From the NCBI GenBank assembly GCA_963666735.1, contig OY762926.1, positions 160,001 through 224,000 of the forward strand: DNA of 64,000 bases, written 5' to 3'. Source of the DNA: Gemmatimonadota bacterium (GTDB taxonomy: Bacteria > Gemmatimonadota > Gemmatimonadetes > Palauibacterales > Palauibacteraceae). Of the stretch, positions 28,370 through 49,345 are shown piece by piece. How positions within the stretch are numbered: the stretch's first letter is position 1; every line of letters begins with the position of its first letter. Position numbers and translations under genes: made by a program. The notes beneath the pieces are model-generated. The model was not told where the DNA came from, ran no database searches, and saw only the letters and a list, made by a program, of their open reading frames with translations.

Positions 28370-28544
28370 GGACTGCCGCACCGAAATCCGGCCCGGGTCC
28401 GGTGCGGACGTTCCCGCGGGAGCGTCTTCCGGTGCTCATGATGATCCTCGTCAGCCTACGCGACATGAGCACTTGGAATCACATATCGTTGTGAGCGTTC
28501 AGCTTACGGGGTTCAGGGGTCATATTCCCGCTGATTGGTTTGGG

Positions 28545-29705
28545 TCAGGCGCGGACCCTCGGGCGACTGTCCAGAGCCTTCCTGAGTTGTCCGGCGTCGG
28601 CCTGCTGATAGCAGCGCAACACCGTCTGAGCCTCCTTCCAGCCGCCAAGCTCGCACAGCACCTTGAGCGGCAGGTCCATGAGGTCGGAAGCGAACTTCCG
28701 CCTCAGCGAGTGCCAGCCTCTCCCTCGTTCGTGCTCCAGTCCCGCGAGCCGCTCGGCTCTGTGCCACCAAGCGACCGCCCGCCCCCGGCTGATGCTCGAT
28801 GATGGGTCCTGCGGCGCGGGCAGCACCAGCCCCTCGCCGTTCGCGTGGTTCGCTTCCCGCGCCTCCTCCAGTACCGCCACCGCCTCGTCGGTCATCGGCG
28901 TGACGTGCTCGTAGCCGGTCTTTTCGTGCTCCGCGCGCCACCGCACCTCGCGCCCCTCGAAGTCGATGTCGCTCCACCGAAGGTTGCGGATCGCCCCGAT
29001 TCGGTGCCCCGTCTCGTGGGCGAGCACGAACGCGACGTGGAACCGTCAATCGACCTGACGGGATACCCCGAGCATCGCTTGGTACTCCTCCTCGGAGAGG
29101 ACGACCCGGGTGGGGTTCTTCTCCTTGGGCGTCTTCAGGCCCCTCAGCGGGTTCGAGTCGAGAAGGAGTCTCCCCTCCTCGTCTCTGGACTTCGTCGCCC
29201 AGTTGAGCACCGCGAGCAGGAACTTCAGGTCCAGCTCGATGGTGCGGTTGCCCACGGGCTTCCCGCTCGGTCCGACCCGGCCTGCCCGGCGCTCCCGGAT
29301 GAAGCGGTCCCAGTCCCGCTGGGACAGGGTCTCGGGCCTTCGGTCCCGCCCGAGGAAGTCGAGGAACATCCTCGTCCCGATTCTGTCCCGGTGCCGGACC
29401 CGCTCCGTCTTGGTGGGCGTCACCTCCTCACCGTAGATGTCAAAGAGCATCTCCAGCGTGAGCGGGTCGGGCTCGGCTTCCGCCTTGCCCCCGATTTCGG
29501 GTCCGATGAATCCAGCGGCGAACTCGTCCGCATGCCGCTTGGCTCTCGCCCAGTCCCGGTGTCCGAGAGACCGGGTGAGCCTGCGCCCGTTCTCGCGCCA
29601 CTCGATCTGGAAGAGGCCGGTCTTCGGGTCAGGGAAGACCCTCACCCGGTTCCGGCCCCACTCGCCGGCGCCGTAGCTCCGGCGGCTTCGTTTCGTGCGT
29701 GCCAT
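28545..29705 (-). pseudogene. Tyrosine recombinase/integrase int1 with one in-frame nonsense codon
   Basis: RQVD-TGA(29046-29048)-RFHVAFVLAHETGHR aligns with GQVG-W-RFRAALVLAHETGHR of int2; HSLRR, GGW, LRCY retained. Confidence 0.9.
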
Positions 29706-30003
29706 CGTTCGATACCTCCGATTCGGCAGACTGAGGATGGCACGAATCACGGCGAGGAATCGTCTAACTGCTTACAGGGCTGCACGATCTGCGCTTTCTG
29801 CCCTTGAAACGTGTCTTCTCCCGTCGTCCAGAAACGGCGGGTAAATCGCCTCGATTTGCGGGAATCGCGTTCCGCCTCCGGCAGTGGCTGGGCGCAGGGT
29901 TCGCGAAGCCGTCTGCCGCAGTCAATCGTCATCTACTTCGCCCTCTGGACTGGACGTGATCGTCCGGTCTTCCTCTGTCCTTCAACCCGTTCGGATCGTG
30001 GAG

Positions 30004-30633
30004 TCAAGGCGATTCGGCTAGCGTGATCGCGTCTTGCATCGCCCACCCGCAGACCGTCCCCGTGAGCCGGGCGACCGGAGCAACGCCGGCGGCCGCATCA
30101 TCGAGCGATATCCGACTCTCCAGCTTGTTGGCCAAGTCGCATCGTCCTCCGCGGTCGTCCAATGACCAAGTCAACGTACCGGAGACATCCGCCTCGATCA
30201 GAATGCCCGCGTCGTAGGAAAGGGTGATCCGGATCGATTGCGCCAAGCGGTCGCTGTCCATGAGGAAGGACACGTCGTCGCCGCTGAATGCGCAGTCCCT
30301 CGCGGTCAGCGTGCCCTCCAACTCGGCGGACATCGTACCCTCCGCCAGCGTCAGCATCGCATCCCCCGTGAAGGAGGCTCGGCCGCCATGCGCGCAGGGA
30401 ATCGCGGCTCGTACTGGTGAATGCCCCTTGGAGACATTGAAGCTCGAATAGGGGCCAAGATGAAGGATCTCGCCGTGAGCCAGCAAGCGCCCGCCGTACA
30501 GCCCCCGCACCAAGGCTGCGGCCTCGGCTTCGGTCATAGCCGGATCAGGGCCTGCGACTTCCCCGCACGCTACCGGGGCGAGCGCGGCGGGAACCAGAAG
30601 CAGCAGGAAGCGCAGCCTCTCGGGTCCAAGCAT
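30004..30633 (-). CDS. Putative lipoprotein
   Basis: RFLLLLVPAALAPVAC signal; beta-rich body with several Cys (PCAHGG, C.F, GTVCG). Confidence 0.65.
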   Translation of the reverse strand: MLGPERLRFLLLLVPAALAPVACGEVAGPDPAMTEAEAAALVRGLYGGRLLAHGEILHLGPYSSFNVSKGHSPVRAAIPCAHGGRASFTGDAMLTLAEGTMSAELEGTLTARDCAFSGDDVSFLMDSDRLAQSIRITLSYDAGILIEADVSGTLTWSLDDRGGRCDLANKLESRISLDDAAAGVAPVARLTGTVCGWAMQDAITLAESP

Positions 30634-30887
30634 TTGGGTCCCCCTTCCCCGTGAACAGGCGTACATTCCATGCAACCCCCGCACCGGGACATCCAGTTTC
30701 GACCGGCCGGTGATCGCGTTCGCTCGCACGGAGGGCGGGTGCCGCCGAGGAGAGAAAACATACCGTACGTCGCCCGCCGAATGCGAACATGGCGCGCTAC
30801 CAGCGCGGCCTCGTGGCCGGGTACGTTATCGTACGGGGTTCCCGCGCAGCGCGGGCGCAGCGTACCAGAGGCCAACTCACGACCCAC

Positions 30888-33494
30888 ATGACCGCACCCA
30901 ACCTGAACTGGATCGCCAACTACATCTGGGGCATCGCGGACGACGTGCTCCGCGATGTCTACGTGCGCGGCAAGTACCGGGATGTGATCCTGCCGATGAC
31001 CGTGCTCAGACGGCTGGACGCCGTGCTGGAGCCCACCAAGCAGGCCGTCCTCGACATGAAGTCCACGCTGGACGCCGCCGGAGTCACGAACCAGGACGCC
31101 GCGCTCCGGCAGGCTGCCGGGCAGGCCTTCCACAACACCTCGACGTTCACACTTCGCGATCTCCGGGCGAGAGCCAGCAGACAGCAACTCAGGGCCGACT
31201 TCGAGGACTACCTCGACGGGTTCTCGCCCAACGTGCAGGACATCCTCGTCAACTTCGAGTTCCGCAACCAGATCCCGCGCCTGGACAGGGCCGACGCCCT
31301 GGGTTCGCTGATCGAGAAGCTGACCTCGCCCGACATCAACCTGGGTCCCGATCCGGTGGTGGACACGGACGGCGCGATCCGGCACCCCGGCCTCGACAAC
31401 CACGGCATGGGCACGGTCTTCGAGGAACTGATCCGGCGCTTCAACGAAGAGAACAACGAGGAGGCGGGCGAGCACTTCACGCCGCGCGACGCCGTGACGC
31501 TCATGGCGAAGCTCGTGTTCCAGCCCATCGCCGACCGGATCGAGTCCGGCACCTACCTGCTCTACGACGGCGCCTGCGGGACCGGCGGCATGCTGACCGT
31601 GGCGGAGGAGGTGCTGCACGGGTTCGCGGAGGAGCGCGGCAAGCAGGTGTCCACGCACCTGTACGGGCAGGAGATCAACGCCGAGACCTACGCGATCTGC
31701 AAGGCCGACCTGCTGCTCAAGGGCGAGGGCGAGGCCGCCGACAACATCGTGGGCGGCCCGGAGCACTCGACGCTCTCGAACGATGCGTTTCCGACGCGCG
31801 AGTTCGACTTCATGCTCTCGAACCCCCCGTACGGCAAGAGTTGGAAGACCGACCTCCAGCGGATGGGCGGCAAGAAGGGGATGACCGATCACCGCTTCCT
31901 GATCGAGCACGCGGGCGACCCCGAGTACTCGCTGGTCACCCGTTCGAGCGACGGCCAGATGCTCTTTCTGGCCAGCAAGCTGTCGAAGATGAAGCGGGAC
32001 ACCCGGCTCGGCAGCCGGATCGCCGAGGTCCACAACGGAAGCTCGCTGTTCACCGGATCGGCGGGTCAGGGCGAGAGCAACATCCGGCGGTGGATCATCG
32101 AGAACGACTGGCTGGAGGCCATCGTTGCCCTGCCGCTCAACATGTTCTACAACACCGGCATCGCCACCTACGTCTGGGTGCTCACGAACCGCAAGCCCGA
32201 GCACCGGCGGGGCAAGGTGCAGCTGATTGACGCGACCCGGTGGTTTCGACCGCTCAGGAAGAACCTGGGGAAGAAGAACTGCGAACTCGGGCCGGAGGAC
32301 ATCGAGCGGATCTGCCGGACGTTCCTCAACTTCGAGGAGACGGAGGAGAGCCGGGTCTTCGACAACGAGGCGTTCGGATACTGGAGGGTGACGGTCGAGC
32401 GGCCGCTACGGCTCAGGGTGGACCTGTCGACCGAGCGCCGCGCCGGGTTCTCCGTGGCGTGTCGTGATGCCGGGGAGGAGCCGCTCGCGAACGCCGTCGC
32501 GCGGGCGGCCAAGACACTCGGCTCAGGGCCTCACTTCAACTCCAACATTTTTCTTGAGGCACTCAAGGCCGATATGTCCGGTCGTCGCGCGAAGCTCACG
32601 GCCAAGCGCAAGAAGCTGTTGCAGACCGTGCTGGCCGAGCGGGACGAGGCGGCGGAGCCGGTGGTCAAGAGGGTCCACCGGCGAGGCACCGCGCCTGACC
32701 CGATCCGGGGACTGTTCGAGTCTCGCGACGGCTCGAAGACTCGCGTCGTCGAGTACGAACCTGACACGGCGCTGAGGGACACCGAGCAGATCCCGCTCAC
32801 GGAAGAGGGCGGAATTGAAGGGTTCCTGCGGCGCGAAGTGCTTCCCTACGCCGGGGATGCGTGGTACGTCGCGACGAGCGTGAAGATCGGCTACGAGATC
32901 AGCTTCAACCGGTACTTCCACAAGCCCGAGCCGATGCGGACACTCGCTGAGATCGGGGACGAGATTCTGGCGGTCGAGCGAGAGACGGAGGGGCTGCTGG
33001 GGGAATTGCTGGGACGCGCGAGGAGTCTCGTTCCCACCAAGCCCCGCGTCTACGTCGACACATCAGTAATCGGAGGCTGCGAGGATGCGGAGTTCCGTGA
33101 ACCCTCTCGTCGGCTGATCGAGCGATGTCAAGACGGGGAAGTGACGCTCGTGGTTTCGGCTGTCACGGCGGGCGAGCTGCGGCAGGCTCCTTCCCCCGTG
33201 CGTCGGGTGCTGCCGTCCATCGGCCCGGAACACTTGGAGAGGGTGGAGGTCACGCGCGAAGTCGAGACTCTGGCGAACGGGTATATTGAGAGCGGAGCGC
33301 TTGGCGAGGGGATGCGCGCCGACGCCCTGCACATTGCTGCCGCGACTGTGGCCGAGGTGGACGTGCTGGCAAGCTGGAACTTCCGGCACATGGTGAACCT
33401 GCGCCGGATCCGTCAATACAACGAGGTGAACCGGATGTTGGGCTACCCTCCGGTGGACATTCGCACCCCCAGGGAGCTTGAAGATGACGAGTGA
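30888..33494 (+). CDS. hsdM: Type I R-M methyltransferase HsdM with in-frame C-terminal PIN (VapC-like) domain
   Basis: IWGIADDVLRD, AGEHFTPRD, YDGACGTGGML, NPPY, GYEISFNRYF; then RVYVDTSV..EL..DALHIA..SWNFRH from ~33042 with no stop in between. Confidence 0.92.
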   Translation: MTAPNLNWIANYIWGIADDVLRDVYVRGKYRDVILPMTVLRRLDAVLEPTKQAVLDMKSTLDAAGVTNQDAALRQAAGQAFHNTSTFTLRDLRARASRQQLRADFEDYLDGFSPNVQDILVNFEFRNQIPRLDRADALGSLIEKLTSPDINLGPDPVVDTDGAIRHPGLDNHGMGTVFEELIRRFNEENNEEAGEHFTPRDAVTLMAKLVFQPIADRIESGTYLLYDGACGTGGMLTVAEEVLHGFAEERGKQVSTHLYGQEINAETYAICKADLLLKGEGEAADNIVGGPEHSTLSNDAFPTREFDFMLSNPPYGKSWKTDLQRMGGKKGMTDHRFLIEHAGDPEYSLVTRSSDGQMLFLASKLSKMKRDTRLGSRIAEVHNGSSLFTGSAGQGESNIRRWIIENDWLEAIVALPLNMFYNTGIATYVWVLTNRKPEHRRGKVQLIDATRWFRPLRKNLGKKNCELGPEDIERICRTFLNFEETEESRVFDNEAFGYWRVTVERPLRLRVDLSTERRAGFSVACRDAGEEPLANAVARAAKTLGSGPHFNSNIFLEALKADMSGRRAKLTAKRKKLLQTVLAERDEAAEPVVKRVHRRGTAPDPIRGLFESRDGSKTRVVEYEPDTALRDTEQIPLTEEGGIEGFLRREVLPYAGDAWYVATSVKIGYEISFNRYFHKPEPMRTLAEIGDEILAVERETEGLLGELLGRARSLVPTKPRVYVDTSVIGGCEDAEFREPSRRLIERCQDGEVTLVVSAVTAGELRQAPSPVRRVLPSIGPEHLERVEVTREVETLANGYIESGALGEGMRADALHIAAATVAEVDVLASWNFRHMVNLRRIRQYNEVNRMLGYPPVDIRTPRELEDDE

Positions 33495-33738
33495 GACCGA
33501 ACGGAAGCCGTTCGACTGCGTGAAGTCGATGCGCGAGATCAGGAATCGAATCAGCGGCGAGATCGCCGACATGTCGTATGCCGAGCTTTCGCGATGGCTC
33601 GAAAGGCGGGTGCGCGAGGACTCCTTCTTCGCACGCATCCCGAAAGCCCGGAACCCATCACGACCGGCTGGGGGGCGAGGTGGGATGCGTGAGCCCGGTT
33701 CTTCGAGCGCAGCAATTGGAGACGGACCCCAAGGCTGA
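33484..33738 (+). CDS. Small protein typical of partners found downstream of PIN toxins (putative antitoxin)
   Basis: [28 protein letters not shown]; overlaps the HsdM-PIN stop. Confidence 0.65.
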
Positions 33739-35537
33739 TGGCAACCCAGCGCTATTCGGTAACTCCACACCCGATCGAATCCCTGCTGACCTGGGTGAAG
33801 TCGGGCGCAATCGCGATCCCTGAAATACAGCGCCCCTTCGTCTGGCCCGCGGTCAAGGTGCGCAATCTGCTTGACTCCCTCTACAACGGCTACCCGGTTG
33901 GCTATCTGATCTCCTGGCGCAACCCGACGATCAAGCTGAAGGACGGAAGCTTGTCCTCCGGGAAGCGTATCCTGATCGACGGGCAGCAACGCGTCACGGC
34001 GCTGATGGCAGCGCTGCTGGGGCACGAGGTGCTGACCAAGGACTACCGCACGGTTCGGATCCGAATCGCCTTTCATCCGCAGCATGAGCGCTTCGAGGTC
34101 CGCAACCCGGCCATCGCCAAGGACGGAGCCTGGATCGACGACATCGCCAAGATTTTCCACCCGGACGCCGACCTCTTCGAGTTCATGGACGACTACGCGT
34201 CGCGCAATCCGGGTGTTGATCGCAGGGTCGTCGGCAAGACGCTCCAGAGAGTCGGTAAGATCGTCAACAACCATGTCGGGGTCATCGAGTTGGCCGAGGA
34301 TCTCGACATCGAGACCGTCACCGAAATCTTCATCCGCGTCAACTCCGAGGGCACGCCGCTTTCCCAAGCCGATTTTGCCATGTCGAAGATCGCCGTCAAC
34401 GAGTCCTACGGCGGCAACCTACTGCGCAAGGCCATCGATTACTTCTGTCACCTCGCGGTGGCGCCGGAGTTCTTCTCGAAGATCGAGAAGGGAGACCCGG
34501 ATTTCACGGCTTCGCCGTTCTGGCCGAGAATGACGTGGCTCAAGGGTGTGAACGACGACCTCTACGATCCCACCTACACGGACATGCTGCGAGTGGCGTT
34601 CACCTCGAAGTTCGAGCGCGGCAGGTTGCAGGATCTGGTCGCGCTTCTCTCCGGGCGGAACTTCGAGACGCGCGAATACGAGGAGGTCATCGCCGAGGAC
34701 GCCTTCGCCCGTTTGCAGGAGGGCGTTCACGCCTTCATGAAGAAGACCCACTTCGACCGGCTGACCATGATCCTGCGCTCCTCGGGGTTCCTTACGTCGC
34801 GCATGATCCGCAGCCAGAACGCGGTCAACTTCGCGTTCATCCTGTACCTGCGGGGCCGCGACGAGCGGCTCGACGCCCATGAGCTCGAACGCCTCGTGCG
34901 GCGCTGGTACGTCATGTCGATCCTGACACGGCGTTACTCGGGAAGTCCCGAAACCGCGTTCGACCGTGACATCCGCCAGATCGCTGCGCAAGGACTGCGG
35001 CCATACGCCGAATCCGTCATTGAGAACGAACTGCCCGGCAGCTATTGGACGGGCATGTTGCCCCAACTCATGGACACATCGTTCTCGACGAGCCCCTACT
35101 TCATCGCATACCAAGCGGCCCAGGCCTACTTGGGCGACAAGGGATTCCTCTCCACCACAATCCGCGTGAGCGATCTTCTGCTCAATCGGGGTGATCGCCA
35201 TCACGTGTTCCCGCGCAAGAATCTGAAGGACAAGGGGCTCACGCGCGGGCGCTACAACCAAATCGCGAACTACGTGATCGCCCAGAGCGAGATCAACATC
35301 GCCATTGGCGACACTCCACCGGAGACCTACTTCGCAAGACTCGCCGAGCAGGTGAGCGGTGGGAAGAGGCGATATGGCGGAATCGTTGATCGCGCCGAGT
35401 TGGAGGAGAACCTCGCCAAGAATTGCGTCCCGCTGAGCCTGCTCGACGGGGAGATTCCCGACTACGACGACTTTCTGGCCGCCCGCCGTAAGCTGATGGC
35501 ACTGAGGATCAGGGCTTGGTTCGAGGCGCTGTCGTGA
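33738..35537 (+). CDS. DUF262 (GmrS) plus C-terminal HNH-like domain; GmrSD-type modification-dependent nuclease
   Basis: [33 protein letters not shown]...NQIAN. Confidence 0.85.
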
Positions 35538-37003
35538 GAGGTCATCTTCGGCCATACCCCGAGATGCGAGACTCGGGGATGGAGTTGCTGGGGAAGGTGC
35601 CCGAGCACTGGGAGGTGCGGCGGCTGAAGTACGCGGTGTCCTTCACGGGAGGCGGTACTCCTTCGAAGACCAATGCTTCGTTCTGGAGGGGTCGGATACC
35701 TTGGGTATCGCCTAAGGATATGACCCGCAACCGACTCAGCGATACCGCCGACCACATTACCGAAGCTGCTGTGGCAGCGAGTGCGGCAAGCATCGTTGCG
35801 GCTGGTGCCGTGCTTGTAGTCGTCAGGTCTGGGATCCTGCGCAGGAAGATTCCAGTGGCGATCAACACGGTGCCGATGGCCGTCAACCAAGACATGAAGG
35901 CCATGCGTCCTCGGAAGGGGATCATGAGTGAGTATCTTCGCGGGTTGATCCAAGGCAACCAGTCGTTCTGGCTGAGCGAGTGGACGAAGCAAGGCGCTAC
36001 GGTGGAGAGCATTGAGCATCGCCTGCTGGCCAACTCGCGAATACCGATCCCTCCACCCTCCGAGCAGACCGCTATCGCCCGTTTCCTGGACGCCGCCGAC
36101 CGGCGCATCCGGCGCTACATCCGTGCGAAGGAGCGGCTGGTCGAGCTATTGGAGGAGCGGAAGCGGGCGCTGATCCACGAGGCCGTTACGGGCCGGATCG
36201 ATGTCCGAACCAGCCAGCCCTATCCGGCCCACAAGGACTCCGGCGTCGAGTGGCTGGGGAAGGTGCCGGAGCATTGGGTGCGATGTCGATTGAGGAACGT
36301 CGTGTCCGAGGTGACGACGGGTTCTCGGGGCTGGTCATCATATGCTGCGGACGACGGACCTCTGTTCGTGCGCGTCGCCAACCTGAGTCGTGGCTCACTT
36401 GAGTTGCGGTTGGAAGATGCTGTGCGACTCGATCTGCCAGCAACCTCTGAAGCAGCCCGAACGCGGATCGCCGAAGGTGATCTACTGCTTTCGGTAACAG
36501 CCTATATCGGATCGGTGGGAGTCGCCCCGGAAGGATTGGGAGAAGCTTATGTGAGCCAACATGTGGCGCGCTGTAGACCGTCCCCTGCGGTCGCCTCCAA
36601 GTGGCTCGGGTACGTGCTTCTCTCGTCGCTGGGGCAGACCTATGGTCAAACGCGGCTGTACGGCGGCACGAAGGACGGGTTATCACTTGACGATGTGCGG
36701 AACTATCCGATTCTGTTACCGTCCCGGGGCGAGCAGCGCGGGTTGGTGCGATGGATTGAGCGACGACTATCCCTGCTCGGAGAGCTGCGGGACGCAACCG
36801 AAAGCCAGATCGAACTCCTCCGCGAGTACCGTACCCGCTTGATCGCCGATGTCGTGACGGGCAAGCTCGATGTGCGCGAGGCGTCGGCGAGGCTACCGGG
36901 GGCGGACCCGCTCGCTGGCGACCGCGACCGAACCGACACCATCCCCACCGAATCGAACCTACATTCAACCGCACACGACACGTTGAAGGAGGCCGTACCA
37001 TGA
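35534..37003 (+). CDS. hsdS: Type I R-M specificity subunit
   Basis: Two TRDs with [12 protein letters not shown] repeats, [26 protein letters not shown]. Confidence 0.93.
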
Positions 37004-37227
37004 CGAACTGGAACGAGTGCCCAGCCGTCGAGCGGACACCGGGCAGGGTGAGCGGAGCCTGGGTCTTTTCGGGCACACGGATTCCGCTCTTCGCGCTCTA
37101 CGAGAACCTGGCCAGCGGGGCCACCGTCGAAGAGTTCGTCGAGTGGTTTCCGGGGGTCGAGGAACGGCAGGTGAGAGCGGTACTCGAACACGAGGCGAAG
37201 ACGCTGAGAACGGCGTTGGCCTTTTGA
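37000..37227 (+). CDS. DUF433 antitoxin-like protein
   Basis: PGRVSGAWVFSGTRIP..LFALYENLASGATVEEF. Confidence 0.9.
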   Translation: MTNWNECPAVERTPGRVSGAWVFSGTRIPLFALYENLASGATVEEFVEWFPGVEERQVRAVLEHEAKTLRTALAF

Positions 37228-37553
37228 AGCTGCTGTTCGACCAGGGCACGCCCGCGCCGTTGCGGAGACGCCTGCCCGGACACTCCGTGGACACGTTGGC
37301 CGAGAAGGGCTGGTCCGAGAAGAGCAACGGCGAGTTGCTCGATCTGGCGGAGCGAGAGGGATACACGGTTCTGGTGACGACCGACCAGAGCTTGGCCCAC
37401 CAACAGAACCTGCCTCGGTGGCGAGTCGGGCTCGTCGTTTTGCTGTCCACGGACTGGTCTCAGGTTCGCCTGCGCACCGAAGAGATCGCCGAGGCCATCG
37501 AGGCGGTGCGTCCGGGCCAAGCCGTCGAAGTGCCGATCCCACATCGCGGCTGA
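37224..37553 (+). CDS. DUF5615 PIN-like toxin
   Basis: KLLFDQG, GW..KSNGELL..AE, VLVTTDQSL..QQNL; TTG start overlapping the DUF433 stop. Confidence 0.88.
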   Translation: MKLLFDQGTPAPLRRRLPGHSVDTLAEKGWSEKSNGELLDLAEREGYTVLVTTDQSLAHQQNLPRWRVGLVVLLSTDWSQVRLRTEEIAEAIEAVRPGQAVEVPIPHRG

Positions 37554-41425: not shown

Positions 41426-41764
41426 ATGAGCGCCGGACGCGCCGTTTGGGTGAAGGTTCGCGCCAGCGAGGCGGAGCGTGCCGAGTGGCACGCCAAGGCG
41501 CGCGCCGCGGGCCTCACGCTGTCGGATCTGGTGCGCCGGTCGGTGGGCCGGACGCGCACATGGACCGTGGCGCACGCCGAGGTCGAGCGCGAGCGCAGCC
41601 GCCAAGTGGCGCGCGTCGGGAACAACCTCAACCAGATCGCTCGGTGGGCAAACACCCACCGGGGGGCCATCGAGGCGGTCGAGGTGATCGGCCACCTCGT
41701 CGCCATCAGGCGGGCGCTCGCGGCACTGTCCCCCGCCGAAGGCCCGGAGTGGGATGCTGATTAA
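41426..41764 (+). CDS. mobC: Relaxosome accessory protein MobC/MbeC
   Basis: RHH-like N-terminus, VARVGNNLNQIARWAN. Confidence 0.9.
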   Translation: MSAGRAVWVKVRASEAERAEWHAKARAAGLTLSDLVRRSVGRTRTWTVAHAEVERERSRQVARVGNNLNQIARWANTHRGAIEAVEVIGHLVAIRRALAALSPAEGPEWDAD

Positions 41765-43355
41765 GTTCCTGGCGCACGGGACCGGATCGGCCGGCAAGGC
41801 GGCCGGCTACCTCCTCGGCGAGCGGGACGCCGCTGGGAAGCCGCGCGAGGGCGTCGAGGTCCTTCGAGGCGATCCGAACCAGGTGGCCGCCGTCGCCGAC
41901 ACGCTTGCGTTCGAGCACAGGTACACATCCGGCGTGATCGCGTGGGCACCGGAGGACGAACCGGCCGACGCCGAGATCGAGGCGGTCGTGGACGCCTTCG
42001 AGGACACGGCCTGGGCGGGACTGGAGCCCGACCGATACGCCTGGACCGCCGTGCTGCACCGCGAGCGCGGCGGCGGCGCGCACGTCCACGTCCTCGCCGC
42101 GCGGTGCGACCTGGAGACCGGCCGGAGCCTCAACATCGCCCCGCCGGGCTGGGAGAAGACCTTCGGCCCGCTCCGGGACGCCTTCAATTCCGAACACGGC
42201 TGGGCTCGCCCGGACGACCCGGCTCGGGCCAGGGTGCAGCAACCCGGCCACCGCGCCTACATCGAAGCGACCCGACTGCGGGCCGGGCTCCGGCTCGAAG
42301 CCTCCCCCCGCGACCTGATCCGGGACTACCTGCTCCAGCGCGTCGAGCACGGCACGGCGCGGAACCGGGCCGATGTCGTCGCCGCACTTCGGGAGGCGGG
42401 CCTGGAAGTGCCGCGCCGGGGCAAGGACTACCTCACCGCGCTGGACCCCGAGACCGGCGACCGCTGGCGGCTGAAAGGAGAACTGTATGGAGAGAACTTC
42501 GACCGCGAACGATTTGACCGAGCGGCTGCGGAAGAGGCTGGAGAGCGAGAGACGGGAGATCGAGGAGCTGACCGCGAGCGAGCTCGAAAGGCTCGGCGAG
42601 AACTCGCGGCGCGCCGCGAGGAACGCGCTGCGTTCCATCGAGCGCGATACGGAGGAGGCGGCCGGGAGGATGCGCGAGCTGCTGGCAAGGGCTTGGCAAC
42701 GGCCCCTGATCGTAGGCCTGAGCCTTTGGCTCGGTTTCTTCGGCGGAAGCTGGGCGACGATGCAGTGGTTGTCGAGGAGCATCCAGAACCGGATCGAGAT
42801 CCGCGCCGAACTGGGCCGGGACATCGAGGACGCCCGGCGGACGCTGGCCCAAATGGAGGAGGACACCTGGGGGCTCGTGTTCCGCGAGATCGAGGGCGAG
42901 CGGTTCGTGGTGGTGCCGGACGAGGTGCTGGCCGATCCGCCCTGGTGGAAGGTGGACGGAGACCTTCCGGCGTTGAAGCTGTTGAGAGAGTGAGGGAGCT
43001 GTATGAGCGAGTTGGAACGGCAGTTGACGGAGGCCTTGAAGAAGTTGTCCGCGCAGTACGTGACGGAGCAGCGGCGGCACTCCGGGCAGGTCGAAGGCTT
43101 GAGGCAGCACGTCGAAGCCTTGCGGCAGCGCGTCGAGCGGCAAAGCGCGGAGAACGACGCCTTGCGGCAGCACGTCGAGCGGCAGAGCGGGGAGAGCGAA
43201 GCCTTGCGGAGGCGAATCGAGTGGCTGAACGAGGACTTTACACGCTTAACCGAGTCGTACGGCGCGCTCGCCGCAACCTTACGATGATGGTCACGGCGAT
43301 GCGCCTGCGCGGGCTGGGGCGCGATCGCGATCGCGATTACGGTCCGAGCCGCTGA
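41754..43355 (+). CDS. MOBP5 (MbeA-like) relaxase
   Basis: MLIKF..GTG....GYLL, VLRGDP, YTSGV, HRERGGGAHVHV, DLETGRSLN, WARPDDP. Confidence 0.88.
   Translation: MLIKFLAHGTGSAGKAAGYLLGERDAAGKPREGVEVLRGDPNQVAAVADTLAFEHRYTSGVIAWAPEDEPADAEIEAVVDAFEDTAWAGLEPDRYAWTAVLHRERGGGAHVHVLAARCDLETGRSLNIAPPGWEKTFGPLRDAFNSEHGWARPDDPARARVQQPGHRAYIEATRLRAGLRLEASPRDLIRDYLLQRVEHGTARNRADVVAALREAGLEVPRRGKDYLTALDPETGDRWRLKGELYGENFDRERFDRAAAEEAGERETGDRGADRERARKARRELAARREERAAFHRARYGGGGREDARAAGKGLATAPDRRPEPLARFLRRKLGDDAVVVEEHPEPDRDPRRTGPGHRGRPADAGPNGGGHLGARVPRDRGRAVRGGAGRGAGRSALVEGGRRPSGVEAVERVRELYERVGTAVDGGLEEVVRAVRDGAAAALRAGRRLEAARRSLAAARRAAKRGERRLAAARRAAERGERSLAEANRVAERGLYTLNRVVRRARRNLTMMVTAMRLRGLGRDRDRDYGPSR
42487..42993 (+). 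CDS. MbeB-like mobilization protein, overlapping the relaxase in another frame
   Basis: RBS AAAGGAG; coiled coil plus TM segment; position matches ColE1 mbeB. Confidence 0.7.
   Translation: MERTSTANDLTERLRKRLESERREIEELTASELERLGENSRRAARNALRSIERDTEEAAGRMRELLARAWQRPLIVGLSLWLGFFGGSWATMQWLSRSIQNRIEIRAELGRDIEDARRTLAQMEEDTWGLVFREIEGERFVVVPDEVLADPPWWKVDGDLPALKLLRE
43003..43287 (+). CDS. MbeD/MobD-like protein with internal 42-bp repeats
   Basis: MSELERQLTEALKKL; repeated ALRQ.VERQS.E. Confidence 0.75.
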   Translation: MSELERQLTEALKKLSAQYVTEQRRHSGQVEGLRQHVEALRQRVERQSAENDALRQHVERQSGESEALRRRIEWLNEDFTRLTESYGALAATLR

Positions 43356-43441
43356 TGAGCGGGAAATCTGGCGCGGACGGCCTCCCGCAGCGAGCTTTCA
43401 GGAGCGCAGATCGTGCGGTCCATCGCGAGAGGAATCGAATG

Positions 43442-44656
43442 ATGGCACGCACGAAGCGGGACCGGCGCAGCTACAGCGCCGGCGAGTGGGGCCGGAACCG
43501 GGTGAGGGTGTTTGCCGACCCGAAGACCGGCGTTTTCCAGATTGAGTGGCGAGAGAACGGGCGAAGGCTCACCCGGTCCCTGAAACACCGGGACTGGGCT
43601 CGGGCCAAGCGGCAGGCCGACGAGGCCGCCGCAGGCCTTGCGATGTACGCGCCCAACGGCAGGGCCGAAGCCGAGTCCGAGCCGCTCACCTTGGAAGGGC
43701 TTTTTGAAATCTACGGTGAGGAGGTGGTCCCGACGAAGCACCGGCGGACCCAGCACCAGAACAGGGCCACGATGCGGATGTTTCTGGACTTCCTCGGGCG
43801 CGACCGAAGACCCGAGACGCTTTCCCGGCGCGACTGGGACCGGTTCATCCGGGAGCGGCGGGCAGGCAGGGTCGGACCCAGCGGCAAGCCCGCAGCCGAC
43901 CGTACCATCGTGTGCGACCTGAAAGTCCTGCTCGCGATCCTAAACTGGGCCGCCAAGTCGAGAGACGAGCACGGCCGCTTGCTCCTCGACAGGAATCCCC
44001 TCAAGGGACTCAGGGTGCCGAAGGTGAAGAACACCACCCGGGTCGTGCTCTCCGACGAGGAATACGAGGCGCTTCTGAGGGTCTCCGGACAGGTGGGTTG
44101 GCGCTTCCGGGCCGCCCTCGTGCTCGCGCACGAGACGGGGCACCGAATCGGAGCCATCCGGAAGCTGAGGTGGGCGGACATCGACTTCGAGGACAGGATC
44201 ATCGTTTGGCGGGCCGAGCATGAGAAAACCGGATACGAGCACCGGACGCCCGCGACCGACGAGGCGATCTCCGCCTTGGAGGAGGCGCAGAGGCACGCTG
44301 GCGGGACCGGAGACGCGCCGGTTCTGCCCGCGCCGCGGGATCCGTCGACGTGCGTGAGCCGTACGCTGGTGGGCACTTGGTGGAAGACCGCCGAGAGGCG
44401 GGCGGGGTTGGAGCCCAAGCGCGGGAGAGGCTGGCACTCGCTCAGGCGGAAGTTCGCTTCAGACCTCATCGGGCTGCCGCTCAAGGTGCTATGCGATCTC
44501 GGCGGCTGGAGGGAAGCCAAGACCGTCCTGCGCTGCTATCAGCACACCGACGACGTACAACTCAGGACGGCTCTGGACAGCCGTCCCCGGAACGGTCGGC
44601 ACCCGATCCAATCGGCGGGAACCGAACAGCGGGAATCGGATCACCGAATCCCGTAA
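43442..44656 (+). CDS. Tyrosine recombinase/integrase int2, intact paralog of int1
   Basis: Catalytic R (TGHR), K (HEKTG), HxxR (HSLRR), W (GGW), Y (LRCY). Confidence 0.92.
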   Translation: MARTKRDRRSYSAGEWGRNRVRVFADPKTGVFQIEWRENGRRLTRSLKHRDWARAKRQADEAAAGLAMYAPNGRAEAESEPLTLEGLFEIYGEEVVPTKHRRTQHQNRATMRMFLDFLGRDRRPETLSRRDWDRFIRERRAGRVGPSGKPAADRTIVCDLKVLLAILNWAAKSRDEHGRLLLDRNPLKGLRVPKVKNTTRVVLSDEEYEALLRVSGQVGWRFRAALVLAHETGHRIGAIRKLRWADIDFEDRIIVWRAEHEKTGYEHRTPATDEAISALEEAQRHAGGTGDAPVLPAPRDPSTCVSRTLVGTWWKTAERRAGLEPKRGRGWHSLRRKFASDLIGLPLKVLCDLGGWREAKTVLRCYQHTDDVQLRTALDSRPRNGRHPIQSAGTEQRESDHRIP

Positions 44657-44825
44657 GTGACGCGCCCGCAACAGAATCGGCAATCAAGGATTTCTGTCGA
44701 TTCGATGGACTGCACGATCTGCGCGTTTGAAACCTCGCGCAGGGCTCGTCCGTCGTCCAGAGTTGGCGGCCCGGCCGGCTCTGGCGCGGGCGCGCCACGG
44801 GGGCGCTGGTTTCTGCGGTCTGTTG

Positions 44826-44882
44826 AAGAGATGGGTTAACGCTTCACGTTAACCTCTGGCCGGGGGATGCCCCCGGACCCCC
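44826..44882. other. Candidate oriT of the second relaxase
   Basis: IR GGTTAACG-CTTCA-CGTTAACC followed by a GC hairpin, immediately upstream of mobC2. Confidence 0.4.
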
Positions 44883-44920
44883 GAACGACATTCCGTGCGC
44901 CACCAAGGAGGCCGCCCGAC

Positions 44921-45265
44921 ATGGCCCGTCCCCGGAAGCCCGAGGCCGAGCGCAGGACCCGCACGATCGGCGTGCGCGTCACGACCACGGAGGCCGCAGA
45001 GATCGCCCAGCGGGCCGGAGCGGCCCGCATGACGAAGGGCGGCTACATGCGCCGCAGGGCGCTGGGGCAGCCGGTCCGCGAGGCAGCCGTTCACCGTCTC
45101 GGCACCAGAGAGCGCGTCGAACTCCACCGGATCGGCGTGAACCTCAACCAGATCGCGCGCGCCCTGAACTCCGGGGTCTCGGCACCCGACGGGACGCTGG
45201 AGGCGGTGGAGCGGGTGGGCGAGCTTGCGGCCGATCTGCTGAGCGGCGAGGCGCTGGACCGATGA
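44921..45265 (+). CDS. mobC: MobC-like relaxosome protein
   Basis: RBS AAGGAGG; RTRTIGVRVT..E, LHRIGVNLNQIARALN. Confidence 0.88.
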   Translation: MARPRKPEAERRTRTIGVRVTTTEAAEIAQRAGAARMTKGGYMRRRALGQPVREAAVHRLGTRERVELHRIGVNLNQIARALNSGVSAPDGTLEAVERVGELAADLLSGEALDR

Positions 45266-46467
45266 TCCCGAAGATCAACAGTCTGGGGCGCTCGTTCGCC
45301 GGTGCCGCGGCGTACTGTCTGCACGATTCCCCGACGCCGGACGACCGGAGTCCGGAGACTTCGGAGCGGGTCGCGTGGGCCGACACCCGTAACCTCGCGA
45401 CGTTTCGGCCGGAGCGGGCCGCGCGGCTGATGGCCGCGACCGCGAAGGCGGCGCCCGACCTCAAACGGCTGGCGGGCGCGGCGCCAGGGGGGCGCAAGCT
45501 GGCGAAGCCGGTGCTGCACTACTCGCTCAGCTGGGCGCAGGACGAGACGCCGGACAAGCGGGAGATGAGCCGCGCGGTGGACGGGAGCCTGGAGGCGCTG
45601 GGTCTGGAGGGCCACGAGGCGCTGGTCGTCGCGCACGACGACACCCGGCATCCCCATGTCCATGTGGTCGCCAACCGTGTCGATCCGGAGACCGGGAAGG
45701 CGGCGAAGCTGGGCAACAGCAAGCTCCGGCTGTCGCGCTGGGCCGAGGGTTACGAGCGGGAGCAGGGACGGATCCGCTGCGAGGAGCGGGTCAGGAACAA
45801 CGAGCGGCGGCGGGCGGGCCAGGCGGTGGTTCGAGGTCTGTCGAACCGGCCGCGCCACTGGGCGCGCGTCCGCCGCGAGGGGTTGCAGCCCGGGCGGGCG
45901 AGGCGGGCAAGGGGGCCGCGCGATGAGGAGCGCGTCGACATGGAGGCATGGCGGCGCGCCGAGGCTGAGGCTTGGGAGACGGTCGCGGGCGGGCGCGAGA
46001 GGGGCCTCCAGCACCTCGAGAGCCGGGCGCGCAAGGAATGGGCCGAACTGCTCAAGCGGCAGGAGGAGATGCGGCAGCGGCTCGACCGGGAGAGCCGCAC
46101 CGTGCTCGGGCGGCTCCGGATCTGGCGGCGCGATCGCTCACTCGGGGAACTGGCCGGGGCAATCCGGGGCCGGGAGGATCTGGTCGAGGGCTGGCGCGAG
46201 GATCTCGACCGGTACCACAGGGACGAGCGGGCCGAGTTGGGCAAGGCACACGGCGAGAGAGCCCGGGAGATCGAGCGCCGTGGGCACAAGTTCTATCGAA
46301 GTAGGCTGGTGGACGCGGAGCGGAACGCATGGGCGGTGCGGGAGACGATGAGGGAGCGCGAACAGACACGGGAGCGGGCGCGCGGCCAGACCATCACCCG
46401 CATCGTTGTACCGCCCCCACCCCGGCCCAGAGGCCCCGAGCGTGGCGGGGGAGGGTTCGAGCGATGA
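45262..46467 (+). CDS. MOBP (MobA/VirD2-like) relaxase
   Basis: G.SF.G...Y, PVLHYSLSW, HDDTRHPHVHVVANRVDP. Confidence 0.9.
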   Translation: MIPKINSLGRSFAGAAAYCLHDSPTPDDRSPETSERVAWADTRNLATFRPERAARLMAATAKAAPDLKRLAGAAPGGRKLAKPVLHYSLSWAQDETPDKREMSRAVDGSLEALGLEGHEALVVAHDDTRHPHVHVVANRVDPETGKAAKLGNSKLRLSRWAEGYEREQGRIRCEERVRNNERRRAGQAVVRGLSNRPRHWARVRREGLQPGRARRARGPRDEERVDMEAWRRAEAEAWETVAGGRERGLQHLESRARKEWAELLKRQEEMRQRLDRESRTVLGRLRIWRRDRSLGELAGAIRGREDLVEGWREDLDRYHRDERAELGKAHGERAREIERRGHKFYRSRLVDAERNAWAVRETMREREQTRERARGQTITRIVVPPPPRPRGPERGGGGFER

Positions 46468-46757: not shown

Positions 46758-47072
46758 ATGGCGGGCCGGAAGGGGCGGTATCCATCCGAGTACAGGGAGC
46801 GGCTGGTGGAACTGGTGAGGGGCGGGCGTAGTGCCGCGTCACTCGCCCGGAAGTTCGAGCCGTCGGAGCAGACGATCCGGAACTGGGTCCGGCAGGCGGA
46901 TGTGGACGAGGGGTTCCGTAGCGACGGGCTGACAACGGAGGCGCGCAGCGAGCTGCGGCGCCTGGAGCGGGAGAACAAGCGGCTCAGGATGGAGCGCGAC
47001 ATCCTAAAAAAAGCCGCGGCCTGGTTCGCGAGGGAGAGCGGATCGATCCCCGGCGGGGGTATGCGTTCATGA
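46758..47072 (+). CDS. IS3 transposase OrfA
   Basis: YPSEYRERLVEL..TIRNWV..LRMERDILKKA; A7G slippery site near 47005. Confidence 0.9.
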   Translation: MAGRKGRYPSEYRERLVELVRGGRSAASLARKFEPSEQTIRNWVRQADVDEGFRSDGLTTEARSELRRLERENKRLRMERDILKKAAAWFARESGSIPGGGMRS

Positions 47073-47917
47073 GGGCGCACCGGGCCGAGTTCCCGCTTCG
47101 GGCCATGTGCCGGGTGCTGGGTCTCTCCCCCAGCGGCTACTACGACTGGTTGAGGCGTCCTCCCTCGGACCGCGCGCGTCGGGACGCGGAACTGGAGGCG
47201 CGGATCGCGAAGATATGGACCGGCAGCGGCGAGACGTACGGCCGTCCGCGGATCCACGCGGCGCTCAGGGCCGAGGGCGAGCGGGTGGGGCAGAAGCGCG
47301 TGGGGCGGCTGATGAGGGGGCTGGAGATCGAGGGCGCGACCAGGCGGCGCTTCAAGACGGCGACGACGAAGAGGGATGCCGAGGCCCGCCCCGCGCCGGA
47401 CCTGGTGGACCGTGACTTCTCGGCCTCGGGGCCCGACGAGCTGTGGGTGGCCGACATCACCTACGTCCCCACGTGGGCTGGCTGGCTGTATCTGGCCGTC
47501 GTGCTCGACGTCTGGAGCCGCCGCGTCGTCGGCTGGGCCATGGCGACGCACATGCGGACCGAGCTCGTCGAGACCGCGCTGGCGATGGCTCTCGCAAGGC
47601 GTCGTCCCGAGGGTCGTGTCGTGCATCATTCCGACAGGGGCTCGCAGTACACCTCGCTCGCCTTCGGGGAGCGCTGCCGCGAGTCGGGCATCGCCCAGTC
47701 CATGGGCTCGGCGGGCGATGCGTACGACAACGCCATGTGCGAGAGCTTCTTCGCCACCCTCGAGTGCGAGCTGATCTGGAAGCGCTCGTTCCGCACGGCG
47801 GACGAGGCGCGACGGGAGGTCTTCGGCTTCATCGAGGGCTTCTACAACACCCGGCGGCTGCACTCGGCACTCGGCTACGAGTCGCCGGCCGACTACGAGA
47901 GCAACCATGCGGCCTGA
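47069..47917 (+). CDS. IS3 transposase OrfB
   Basis: WVADITY, HSDRGSQY, DNAMCESFF.TLE.E, YNTRRLHSALGY. Confidence 0.92.
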   Translation: MRAHRAEFPLRAMCRVLGLSPSGYYDWLRRPPSDRARRDAELEARIAKIWTGSGETYGRPRIHAALRAEGERVGQKRVGRLMRGLEIEGATRRRFKTATTKRDAEARPAPDLVDRDFSASGPDELWVADITYVPTWAGWLYLAVVLDVWSRRVVGWAMATHMRTELVETALAMALARRRPEGRVVHHSDRGSQYTSLAFGERCRESGIAQSMGSAGDAYDNAMCESFFATLECELIWKRSFRTADEARREVFGFIEGFYNTRRLHSALGYESPADYESNHAA

Positions 47918-48035
47918 GGCGCACCCGCGGCGCACACCGACATCCTCTCCCGAGCGCCTGAGGGAGGCTGAAAGGAGAAGAACCGGAGGCGATCAACCAC
48001 AGAAACTAACCGTCCGTGAAAGCGGGACAGCTCCA

Positions 48036-48860
48036 CAGATCTCCAGGGCCGGGCTTCTTGAAGAACCTGCCCTTGTGCGCGGAGCGGCAGGCCGGACAAT
48101 GGTATTCGATCGCAAACATGCGGTGTTCGAGCGGCCCGTTCGCCGTTTGTGGAAACTTGTTCTTGGCACCGCAGCCGGGGCAGTCGACGGTCGCGCGTCT
48201 GGCGGGTCCTTGCAGGCGGAGCGGGCTCCTGCAGGCTGAGCAACCGCCGGGTGCGTGCCGATCCGCGACTTCGTTCAACTCTCCACAGGCGCCGCACACA
48301 AGCACCGAAGACGGGTGGCGAGCGTTAGTTGCCAGCAGGTAGCCGGGGAAGAGGTCGATATCCTGGGCGCAGGTCTCGCAGGGCTGCGTCTTCACCCACA
48401 GGAAATACTTGACCGGAACTGCTCGGTCGCACGCCGAACATTCCGTTTCATACTGAGAACCCAGTTCCGCTCGTAGCTGGCTGACCAATGCGCTTCCGGC
48501 CTCAGCGTACTCGTCGAGGTCGAGGCTTTCCAGCTCCCGTCCCACGATCCACCAAGCCATCGGATTGATGTCCAAGCCCGCGACATCGGCCCCGAGACGG
48601 TTCGCCTCGATGAGGGGAGTACCCCCACCCATGAAGGGATCGGCAATGCGCTTCCCGCGCAGTTGGTGCGAGACGAAGAAGCTCTCGGAAAGGGCGGCAT
48701 CCACGAACTCGGCGAGGAGCAGGCCGCGAAACAGCGTGCCCGGCCGTCGCGCAAACCATTTGTGCACCGCAATGATGGGCCGGTAGTTTTGCTGGATGGC
48801 CTTCTCGCGCAAGGCCAGCGCGGAAATCAGCGGCACATCGAAGCGATCTTCCAACCTCAT
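48036..48860 (-). pseudogene. DUF1156/COG1743-type adenine DNA methylase with Zn ribbons, 3'-truncated by IS3
   Basis: REKAIQQNYRPIIAVHKWFARRPG, DPFMGGGTP, DINP, multiple CxxC. Confidence 0.85.
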
Positions 48861-49157
48861 CCGGTGCGTCCAGGTTGTGTGCAGGTCGAGTACGGCTCCA
48901 CTCCTGATCCGAAGGTAAGGGTGCCGGGCCCGCCGGACACCCGGCGGTGCAGACGCCGCAATCGCGACACCCGACTCGAGCATGGCTCCGGTTCTCAACG
49001 CACGATCATCTGAAGAGTCGGAGAAACGGACGAATCCTCCCCTCAGAGGGGCTTCGTTGCCTTGCGGGTCCTCGACTTGACTTGCTTCGCACCATGCGAG
49101 CCTGGCTCGAAAACCCGCACCCCTTTCCAGCAGATGGTTGATTCCATGAACCGCTTC

Positions 49158-49247
49158 CGGCTCATCCGCTTCGCGGACCAAGGTCATCGGCCGGCAGGAT
49201 ACGCAGAGCGGATGAATCGCCGCATCGATGCCCTACGAAGCCAGTAG
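49158..49247 (+). pseudogene. Orphan 3' end of a TlpA paralog
   Basis: LIRFADQG...GYAERMNRRIDALRSQ-stop versus LIQFKREG...GYEAGVARRIDALRSQ-stop at 28369. Confidence 0.7.
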
Positions 49248-49345
49248 CCGCTCCTGGCGAAGAGATCACGGCCTTGCAACGCGTTCCCGCGGGAACGTCT
49301 ACTATCCCTCCCGACCCGGGGATTGCGCGCAGACGGAGATACCGG

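Follow-up and report, generated by a model that had tools for sequence, protein, structure and literature searches.

The window analysed here, a 64,000-nt stretch of a Gemmatimonadota genome, holds a type I restriction-modification (R-M) operon whose hsdM gene runs on into a PIN domain. What does a nuclease fold do at the end of a methyltransferase subunit? Type I R-M is reported to be non-addictive, as the systems examined showed no postsegregational killing (PMC3874152, partial text), and the known back-up toxins PrrC and RonA are separate proteins; hsdM-PIN joins the nuclease to the methyltransferase chain.

The fusion gene and its reading frame

Translation of the window gave one frame of 868 aa with no internal stop (Table 1), and its start at 30888 was the homolog-consensus start. 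HsdM_N covers residues 9–145 and N6_Mtase residues 171–486. The HsdM part is complete, since positions 4–660 of the 661 in the PADLOC profile MTase_I (PDLC03029) aligned to fusion residues 4–708; motif I (YDGACGTGG, 31563–31589) and NPPY (31821–31832) are both intact. Together with a two-TRD hsdS and an hsdR motor-nuclease gene, this hsdM completes a type I R-M gene set in one locus, for which methylation and restriction activity are predicted. The full-length model (pTM 0.33) did not place PIN and left the methyltransferase core unresolved. The last HsdM helix, around which model confidence was low, is probably the C-terminal tail that packs on HsdS, by analogy with solved type I methyltransferases, in which both HsdM C-terminal tails bundle with HsdS (PMC9613975, partial text).

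Table 1. Features of the hsdM-PIN locus and its surroundings (positions in the window)
Feature	Position	Strand	Basis or remark
hsdM-PIN fusion gene, 868 aa (P0001)	30888..33494	+	Open translation, Pfam domains, PADLOC profile
HsdM part, residues 1–705	30888..33002	+	Pfam, PADLOC, motifs
Last HsdM helix, residues 686–703	32943..32996	+	Full-length model, low confidence around the helix
Linker, residues 706–718	33003..33041	+	dN/dS 0.76; contains TTG codon 707 (33006–33008), AGGAG (33021–33025), GTT (33030–33032)
VapC-fold PIN domain	33042..33491	+	Structure match, invariant motif, dN/dS 0.20
Partner, 84 aa, putative antitoxin, unnamed family	33484..33738	+	Follows PIN; dN/dS 0.30
GmrSD_N (DUF262) protein, variable cargo	33738..35537	+	Pfam; homolog in 4/25 fused loci
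hsdS, two-TRD specificity subunit	35516..37003	+	Pfam, PADLOC
DUF433 gene, antitoxin-like half of second TA pair	37000..37227	+	Pfam
DUF5615 PIN-like gene, second TA pair	37221..37553	+	E = 1e-4, just under cut-off
hsdR, 999 aa	37555..40554	+	Pfam; D..ELK, Walker A and DEAH motifs
mobC, relaxase, tyrosine integrase, mobC, relaxase (mobile-element context)	41426..46467	+	Pfam

Residues 715–868 alone matched Pfam PIN at E = 0.0018, weaker than the Pfam cut-off. A sequence search of the PDB found no match for PIN, and neither PIN nor its partner matched PADLOC or, in any meaningful way, NCBIfam. A model of residues 719–868 (pLDDT 92.5) matched VapC toxins with a best Z of 12.8 (rmsd 2.6 Å, 127 aligned residues), and an earlier note on this DNA, which had described a complete HsdM running without a stop into a PIN domain, was correct on this point. 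The acidic catalytic positions it had picked out (DTSV, E, DALH and SWN) are D724 (33057), E763 (33174), D812 (33321), H815 and S829-W830-N831. These residues, together with T725, S726 and D733, were invariant in 121 of 121 fusions, so that the fourth acidic position is N831 (of SWN) in each of them. We infer that PIN is a toxic RNase.

A read error was considered as the source of the fusion and rejected: many other genomes have this frame open as well, and a contig of run X6 spans 32769–33540, across the junction, with 37 substitutions and no gap. The suspicion that the fusion is recent, accidental or unique to this assembly was likewise not borne out, as it spans several phyla. Contigs of RNA run X19 represented related hsdM genes only, none of them over PIN, and were uninformative. 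No sigma-70 promoter or terminator match was found within 30500–34000.

Both the AGGAG and the in-frame GTT pointed out earlier are present in the linker. As a start from which PIN would be translated separately, this site was rejected: codon 715 is GTT in three of 23 sequences, AGGAG is not kept, and homologs differ freely at the site. Of the 22 Leu codons at position 707, 17 are TTG, the top share among 80 Leu columns (three others reach 0.65–0.69); this codon matches the start of a split subtype described below and has purine runs 2 or 14 nt away. Extra internal initiation there is a weak candidate, possible but unsupported, and the fusion protein would still be made, because with no stop in the frame ribosomes translating hsdM must make it. 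A Met lies within the last 22 linker residues in 46 of the 120 listed fusions. Many fusion linkers have a short (R/A)EP..Y-like motif ahead of PIN, and PINs outside HsdM fusions are preceded by it too (P0345, P0378, P0419, P0440). The linker may be a remnant of an upstream small gene.

Distribution, selection and the partner gene

Residues 715–868 were scored against proteins of 477–1519 aa, which gave 186 matches, of which 120 were listed. N6_Mtase was present in all 120 of these long homologs, with identities of 57–94% for PIN and 68–94% for HsdM. HsdM-PIN is a conserved family of well over 100 protein clusters and not an accident. Annotation misses the PIN domain, with a precomputed PIN label on only five of the 120 listed fusions.

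Because the protein search selects long proteins, DNA loci were gathered by PIN patterns. Among the 41 loci found, 28 had a long hsdM stretch ending directly upstream: 25 in frame, one frameshifted and two split. One of the 25 in-frame hsdM genes is interrupted by an inserted integrase, and two are cut by contig ends. In locus L008 (5041–9465), an inserted relaxase and integrase interrupt hsdM near codon 360; the rest of hsdM-PIN, partner, hsdS and hsdR are still open. Fused loci were found in Gemmatimonadota, Acidobacteriota, Gammaproteobacteria and Latescibacterota. Among named loci the closest belong to Gemmatimonadota MAGs, and those read sets that carry a label come from sponge metagenomes, which makes a sponge symbiont the probable host.

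Selection was estimated with the Nei–Gojobori method for 23 fused genes (253 pairs of related sequences, hence not independent). Median dN/dS was 0.13 for HsdM residues 1–500, 0.27 for residues 501–705, 0.76 for the linker, 0.20 for PIN and 0.30 for the partner core. No pair reached 1 for PIN (246 of 253 usable) or for the partner (217 of 253 usable). PIN and partner are under purifying selection, and the linker is nearly neutral. Measured from a fixed motif in HsdM, the first PIN strand lay 47–90 residues further on (48 in 77 of 120 fusions), and the linker is variable in length. Since PIN lacks a good start of its own, what the open frame reveals is selection to express PIN and not selection to keep the tether.

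The putative antitoxin gene overlaps the 3' end of the fusion by 11 nt, in agreement with the overlapping 84-aa partner reported before. Its conserved core comprises residues 1 to about 60, and the protein is charged, with no hydrophobic stretch seen by eye. It gave no match to Pfam or NCBIfam and no recognisable VapB domain or DNA-binding domain of the RHH, AbrB, HTH or Phd type, and its Atlas matches were unnamed clusters only. Immediately downstream of PIN, the partner was present in all 25 fused loci and in 74 of the 80 stand-alone loci examined, which were the best of at least 589 metagenome loci. Pairwise identities correlated strongly between PIN and partner (rho 0.85), more weakly between PIN and HsdM core (0.40) and least between partner and core (0.23). 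PIN and partner form a single chain in eight of 19 split-type proteins and six of 147 representatives; with the 11-nt overlap and the rho of 0.85, these single chains give the two-gene coupling of a type II toxin–antitoxin (TA) system. Extra diverged partner copies without a PIN of their own were found in L034 (six) and L027 (three), with a lone remnant in L097; such persistence and multiplication is the asymmetry expected of an antitoxin. This is what a toxin-first TA pair would look like, in which the partner would bind and block PIN. Diverged partner genes also lie in tandem, at most six together and mostly lacking a PIN of their own, in L034 (9446–13394), L027 (1403–2350), L019, L032, L033, L035 and L103; such arrays may serve for immunity.

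None of these 80 stand-alone metagenome loci had an hsd gene within the DNA retrieved, many of the contigs being short, and PIN mostly began at its own Met. PIN and partner are thus a two-gene module older than the fusion. At E ≤ 0.001 the module had 6064 representatives, more distant PINs included. The stand-alone loci (L104–L183) represent a large unnamed toxin-first module of PIN and small partner, independent of R-M, whose partner has no Pfam family.

PIN is dispensable, as 96 of the 120 nearest HsdMs (82–94% identity over residues 1–700) carry none; 23 have a full and one a partial PIN, and most PIN-free HsdMs end about six residues past the last helix. A second set of loci was collected via the HsdM C-terminal part (30 of 37 matches fetched, 401 genomes); it overlaps the PIN-pattern set, so that the counts are not additive, and contained 12 fused (window included), two split and 16 PIN-free loci. 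On the HsdM-core tree, the 25 fused rows needed 17–18 changes versus 23.0 in shuffles, and a single clade of fused HsdM cores was rejected (p-AU 1.6e-6, in a subset of 14/25 fused and 20/96 unfused rows). In several alleles HsdM is 92–95% identical to that of the window, yet PIN only about 70% and the partner 44–49%. Divergence of fused versus unfused alleles begins just past the last HsdM helix: contigs of runs X6 and X19 depart from the window at 32998–32999 and continue into an unfused tail. Homologous recombination with a crossover near this helix would be the simplest account, and PIN and partner have apparently been exchanged as a unit between hsdM alleles of sponge symbionts. On the origin of the fusion, a single clade was rejected with all rows (p-AU 0.0016) but not (p-AU 0.71) after dropping 16 of 60 stand-alone rows that are possible fragments; the fusion may have arisen once or more than once.

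The split subtype comprises 19 proteins (P0134, P0145 and P0155 among them; loci L038, L043, L093 and L095). Its hsdM stop overlaps the PIN start (ATGA), its PIN is strongly diverged, and the partner is often on the PIN C-terminus. It is nested among fused PINs, has changed fast (branch 0.89) and has lost an F-R-H motif.

Competing explanations and known systems

We tentatively favour, at a little short of an even chance, a toxin-first type II TA cassette (PIN RNase plus partner) grafted in frame onto the 3' end of hsdM, which is blocked by the partner and freed when the partner runs out. The toxin-first reading follows from the position of the partner behind PIN in fused and stand-alone loci, the extra copies without PIN and the single-chain forms. 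The partner would block PIN, and HsdM, as the carrier, would provide for expression and a 1:1 ratio and probably for a long half-life. VapC proteins work as dimers. An M2S1 assembly would put two PINs side by side, if both HsdM tails bundle with HsdS as in the solved enzymes (PMC9613975, partial text). The trigger would be a stop in partner synthesis, whether the locus is lost or allelically replaced or a phage shuts off host expression; the freed PIN would then cut RNA and growth would halt. The outcome would be the addiction normally missing from a type I R-M locus, plus a back-up defence; with the swappable PIN–partner add-on, a defence locus may become addictive or gain a back-up kill switch. 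Counting against this reading are the persistence of the 19-protein split subtype without a tether, the 96 of the 120 nearest HsdMs that have no PIN, and the partner in which no DNA-binding or VapB domain was recognised. As a nuclease on the methyltransferase chain that is exchanged between alleles, and across phyla within a single habitat, hsdM-PIN offers a direct test of whether physical linkage turns a TA pair into an R-M-coupled kill switch, with fused, split and PIN-free alleles as natural controls at 82–94% identity.

The pair could also be a passive hitch-hiker, one more TA cassette in the cargo slot between hsdM and hsdS, where fusion only solves translation and the tether has no role. 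We regard this as rather unlikely, but it is poorly separable from the carrier reading on present data. The near-neutral linker of variable length, the module standing alone elsewhere, the nesting of the split subtype among fused PINs, and the second PIN-type TA pair and variable cargo in the same operon all fit it, as do the separate PIN genes known from type I operons (PMC5499597, partial text). Set against hitch-hiking is the frame kept in 25 of the 28 loci with hsdM directly upstream, across several phyla and with PINs 57–94% identical; the fast change of split PINs and their loss of the F-R-H motif also suggest that free and tethered forms are not equivalent.

The earlier note had proposed a guard of the R-M system, in which the tethered RNase would sense Ocr/ArdA-type attack on the methyltransferase complex or its proteolysis. 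In such a guard, Ocr/ArdA binding, disassembly or proteolysis of M2S or R2M2S would displace the partner, or free or dimerise the PINs, and cause abortive infection as with PrrC and RonA. PIN does sit on the HsdM tail that anchors M2S assembly, HsdM was the sole R-M domain found with PIN when the longest or extended representatives (27 of the 150 listed) were scanned with Pfam, and truncated fusions keep the tail of the same HsdM subfamily as full-length fusions. PrrC and Ronin provide precedent. Of the 25 fused loci, 17 have a full-length HsdR (in four it runs off the locus edge, in two it is interrupted and in two it was not found), which would leave a working R-M system to guard. PrrC and RonA, however, are restrained by the R-M complex, whereas PIN comes with a dedicated partner that predates the fusion. 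That partner, rather than the R-M complex, looks like the inhibitor, given its presence away from hsd genes (74 of 80 loci), its closer correlation with PIN (rho 0.85 versus 0.40) and the loose, near-neutral linker. Such a linker and free swapping between HsdM alleles fit allosteric coupling poorly, and a DNA mimic need not move the HsdM tails, since the four-helix bundle is present in both the open and the closed state (PMC9613975, partial text). We therefore consider a guard unlikely. A variant, likewise unlikely, makes the M2S1 complex itself the toxin switch, in that the assembly would hold two tethered PINs and partner until a DNA mimic, proteolysis or HsdS loss releases the RNase; if true, it would be a covalent, allele-swappable guard of type I R-M, with partner arrays as immunity against incoming hsdM-PIN alleles in sponge microbiomes. 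What stands of the proposal is a conserved HsdM-PIN accompanied by an antitoxin-like partner, for which a role as back-up or maintenance toxin is plausible; PrrC-like guarding is so far unsupported.

PcrIIC1 is not known to have a partner gene. This PIN-fold accessory of a DNA-targeting immune enzyme, the type II-C CRISPR nuclease Cas9, enhances DNA targeting (8wmm; PMC12669027, partial text) and was near-tied with VapC toxins among the top structural matches of PIN (8wmm_G, Z 11.5). PIN might by analogy be a non-toxic scaffold or helper nuclease boosting methylation or restriction. PcrIIC1 differs in being a separate protein with 12% identity to PIN, and VapC toxins score equal to or above it; the obligate partner, the orphan partner arrays and the same pair far from R-M genes fit a toxin better, which makes an accessory role highly improbable.

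With VapBC, the pair shares the VapC fold, the acidic triad and the small overlapping partner gene. It differs from VapBC in its gene order (partner downstream of PIN in 25/25 fused and 74/80 stand-alone loci), the partner without a recognised VapB DNA-binding domain, the N at the fourth acidic position and the methylase fusion. PrrC is an ABC-ATPase/HEPN protein. No PrrC model was among the PADLOC matches listed that would indicate a separate ATPase and anticodon-nuclease protein, and the effector here is PIN within HsdM. PrrC–EcoprrI is similar as an RNase tied to a type I R-M locus and a possible second line of defence (PMC12707154, partial text), but there the R-M enzyme restrains PrrC as a separate protein, whereas the putative RNase of the window is a covalent PIN with its own partner. 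Ronin also links a toxin to hsdM and hsdS: its locus lacks hsdR, and HsdMS suppresses RonA, a membrane toxin of 61 aa that is a protein of its own (10.1101/2023.04.06.535777, partial text). The putative toxin of the window is a fused nuclease with a charged partner, and the full-length hsdR in the window and in 17 of 25 fused loci argues against a Ronin-like decoy. PIN genes coupled to type I R-M operons, including DUF433–PIN_10 with HsdM, HsdS and GmrSD, have been described (Matelska et al. 2017, PMC5499597 section 17). They resemble the window operon in PIN genes co-transcribed with hsd subunits, a DUF433/PIN pair and GmrSD_N, but are separate genes in poorly conserved arrangements, while the PIN here lies inside the HsdM chain, an arrangement conserved in well over 100 protein clusters; section 17, the available portion of the supplement and the Fig. 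S7 legend contain no HsdM-PIN fusion. Embedded systems (10.1101/2024.01.29.577857) and multidomain RelE toxins (PMC11980606), as far as the available text of both goes, differ from HsdM-PIN. A full-text literature search (titles and abstract starts) found no description of the fusion, although subscription journals, bioRxiv supplements, REBASE or InterPro could hold one. The architecture is apparently undescribed and built from known kinds of parts.

Operon and mobile context

Between hsdS and hsdR lies a second PIN-type TA pair, DUF433 and DUF5615 (37000–37553), and DUF433 was present in 17 of the 25 fused loci. Elsewhere in the genome, a frameshifted PIN remnant (L007, G000:C1:3370264–3370451) lies beside a DUF433-like gene. 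A second type I locus (G000:C1:269654–283300) encodes an HsdM that is 39% identical and has no PIN, with other cargo between hsdM and hsdS.

No tRNA was found. A 19-nt palindrome (28409–28427 and 49282–49300) was considered as an att pair and rejected, as it has about 40 genome copies and is REP-like. What we take, from labels by eye, to be an IS3-like transposase pair (46758–47917, + strand, and 48006–49187, − strand) lies beside an apparently truncated methyltransferase-like ORF. A split integrase (28545–29750, − strand) and an intact paralog (43355–44656, + strand), about 80% alike, face inward around the hsd operon.
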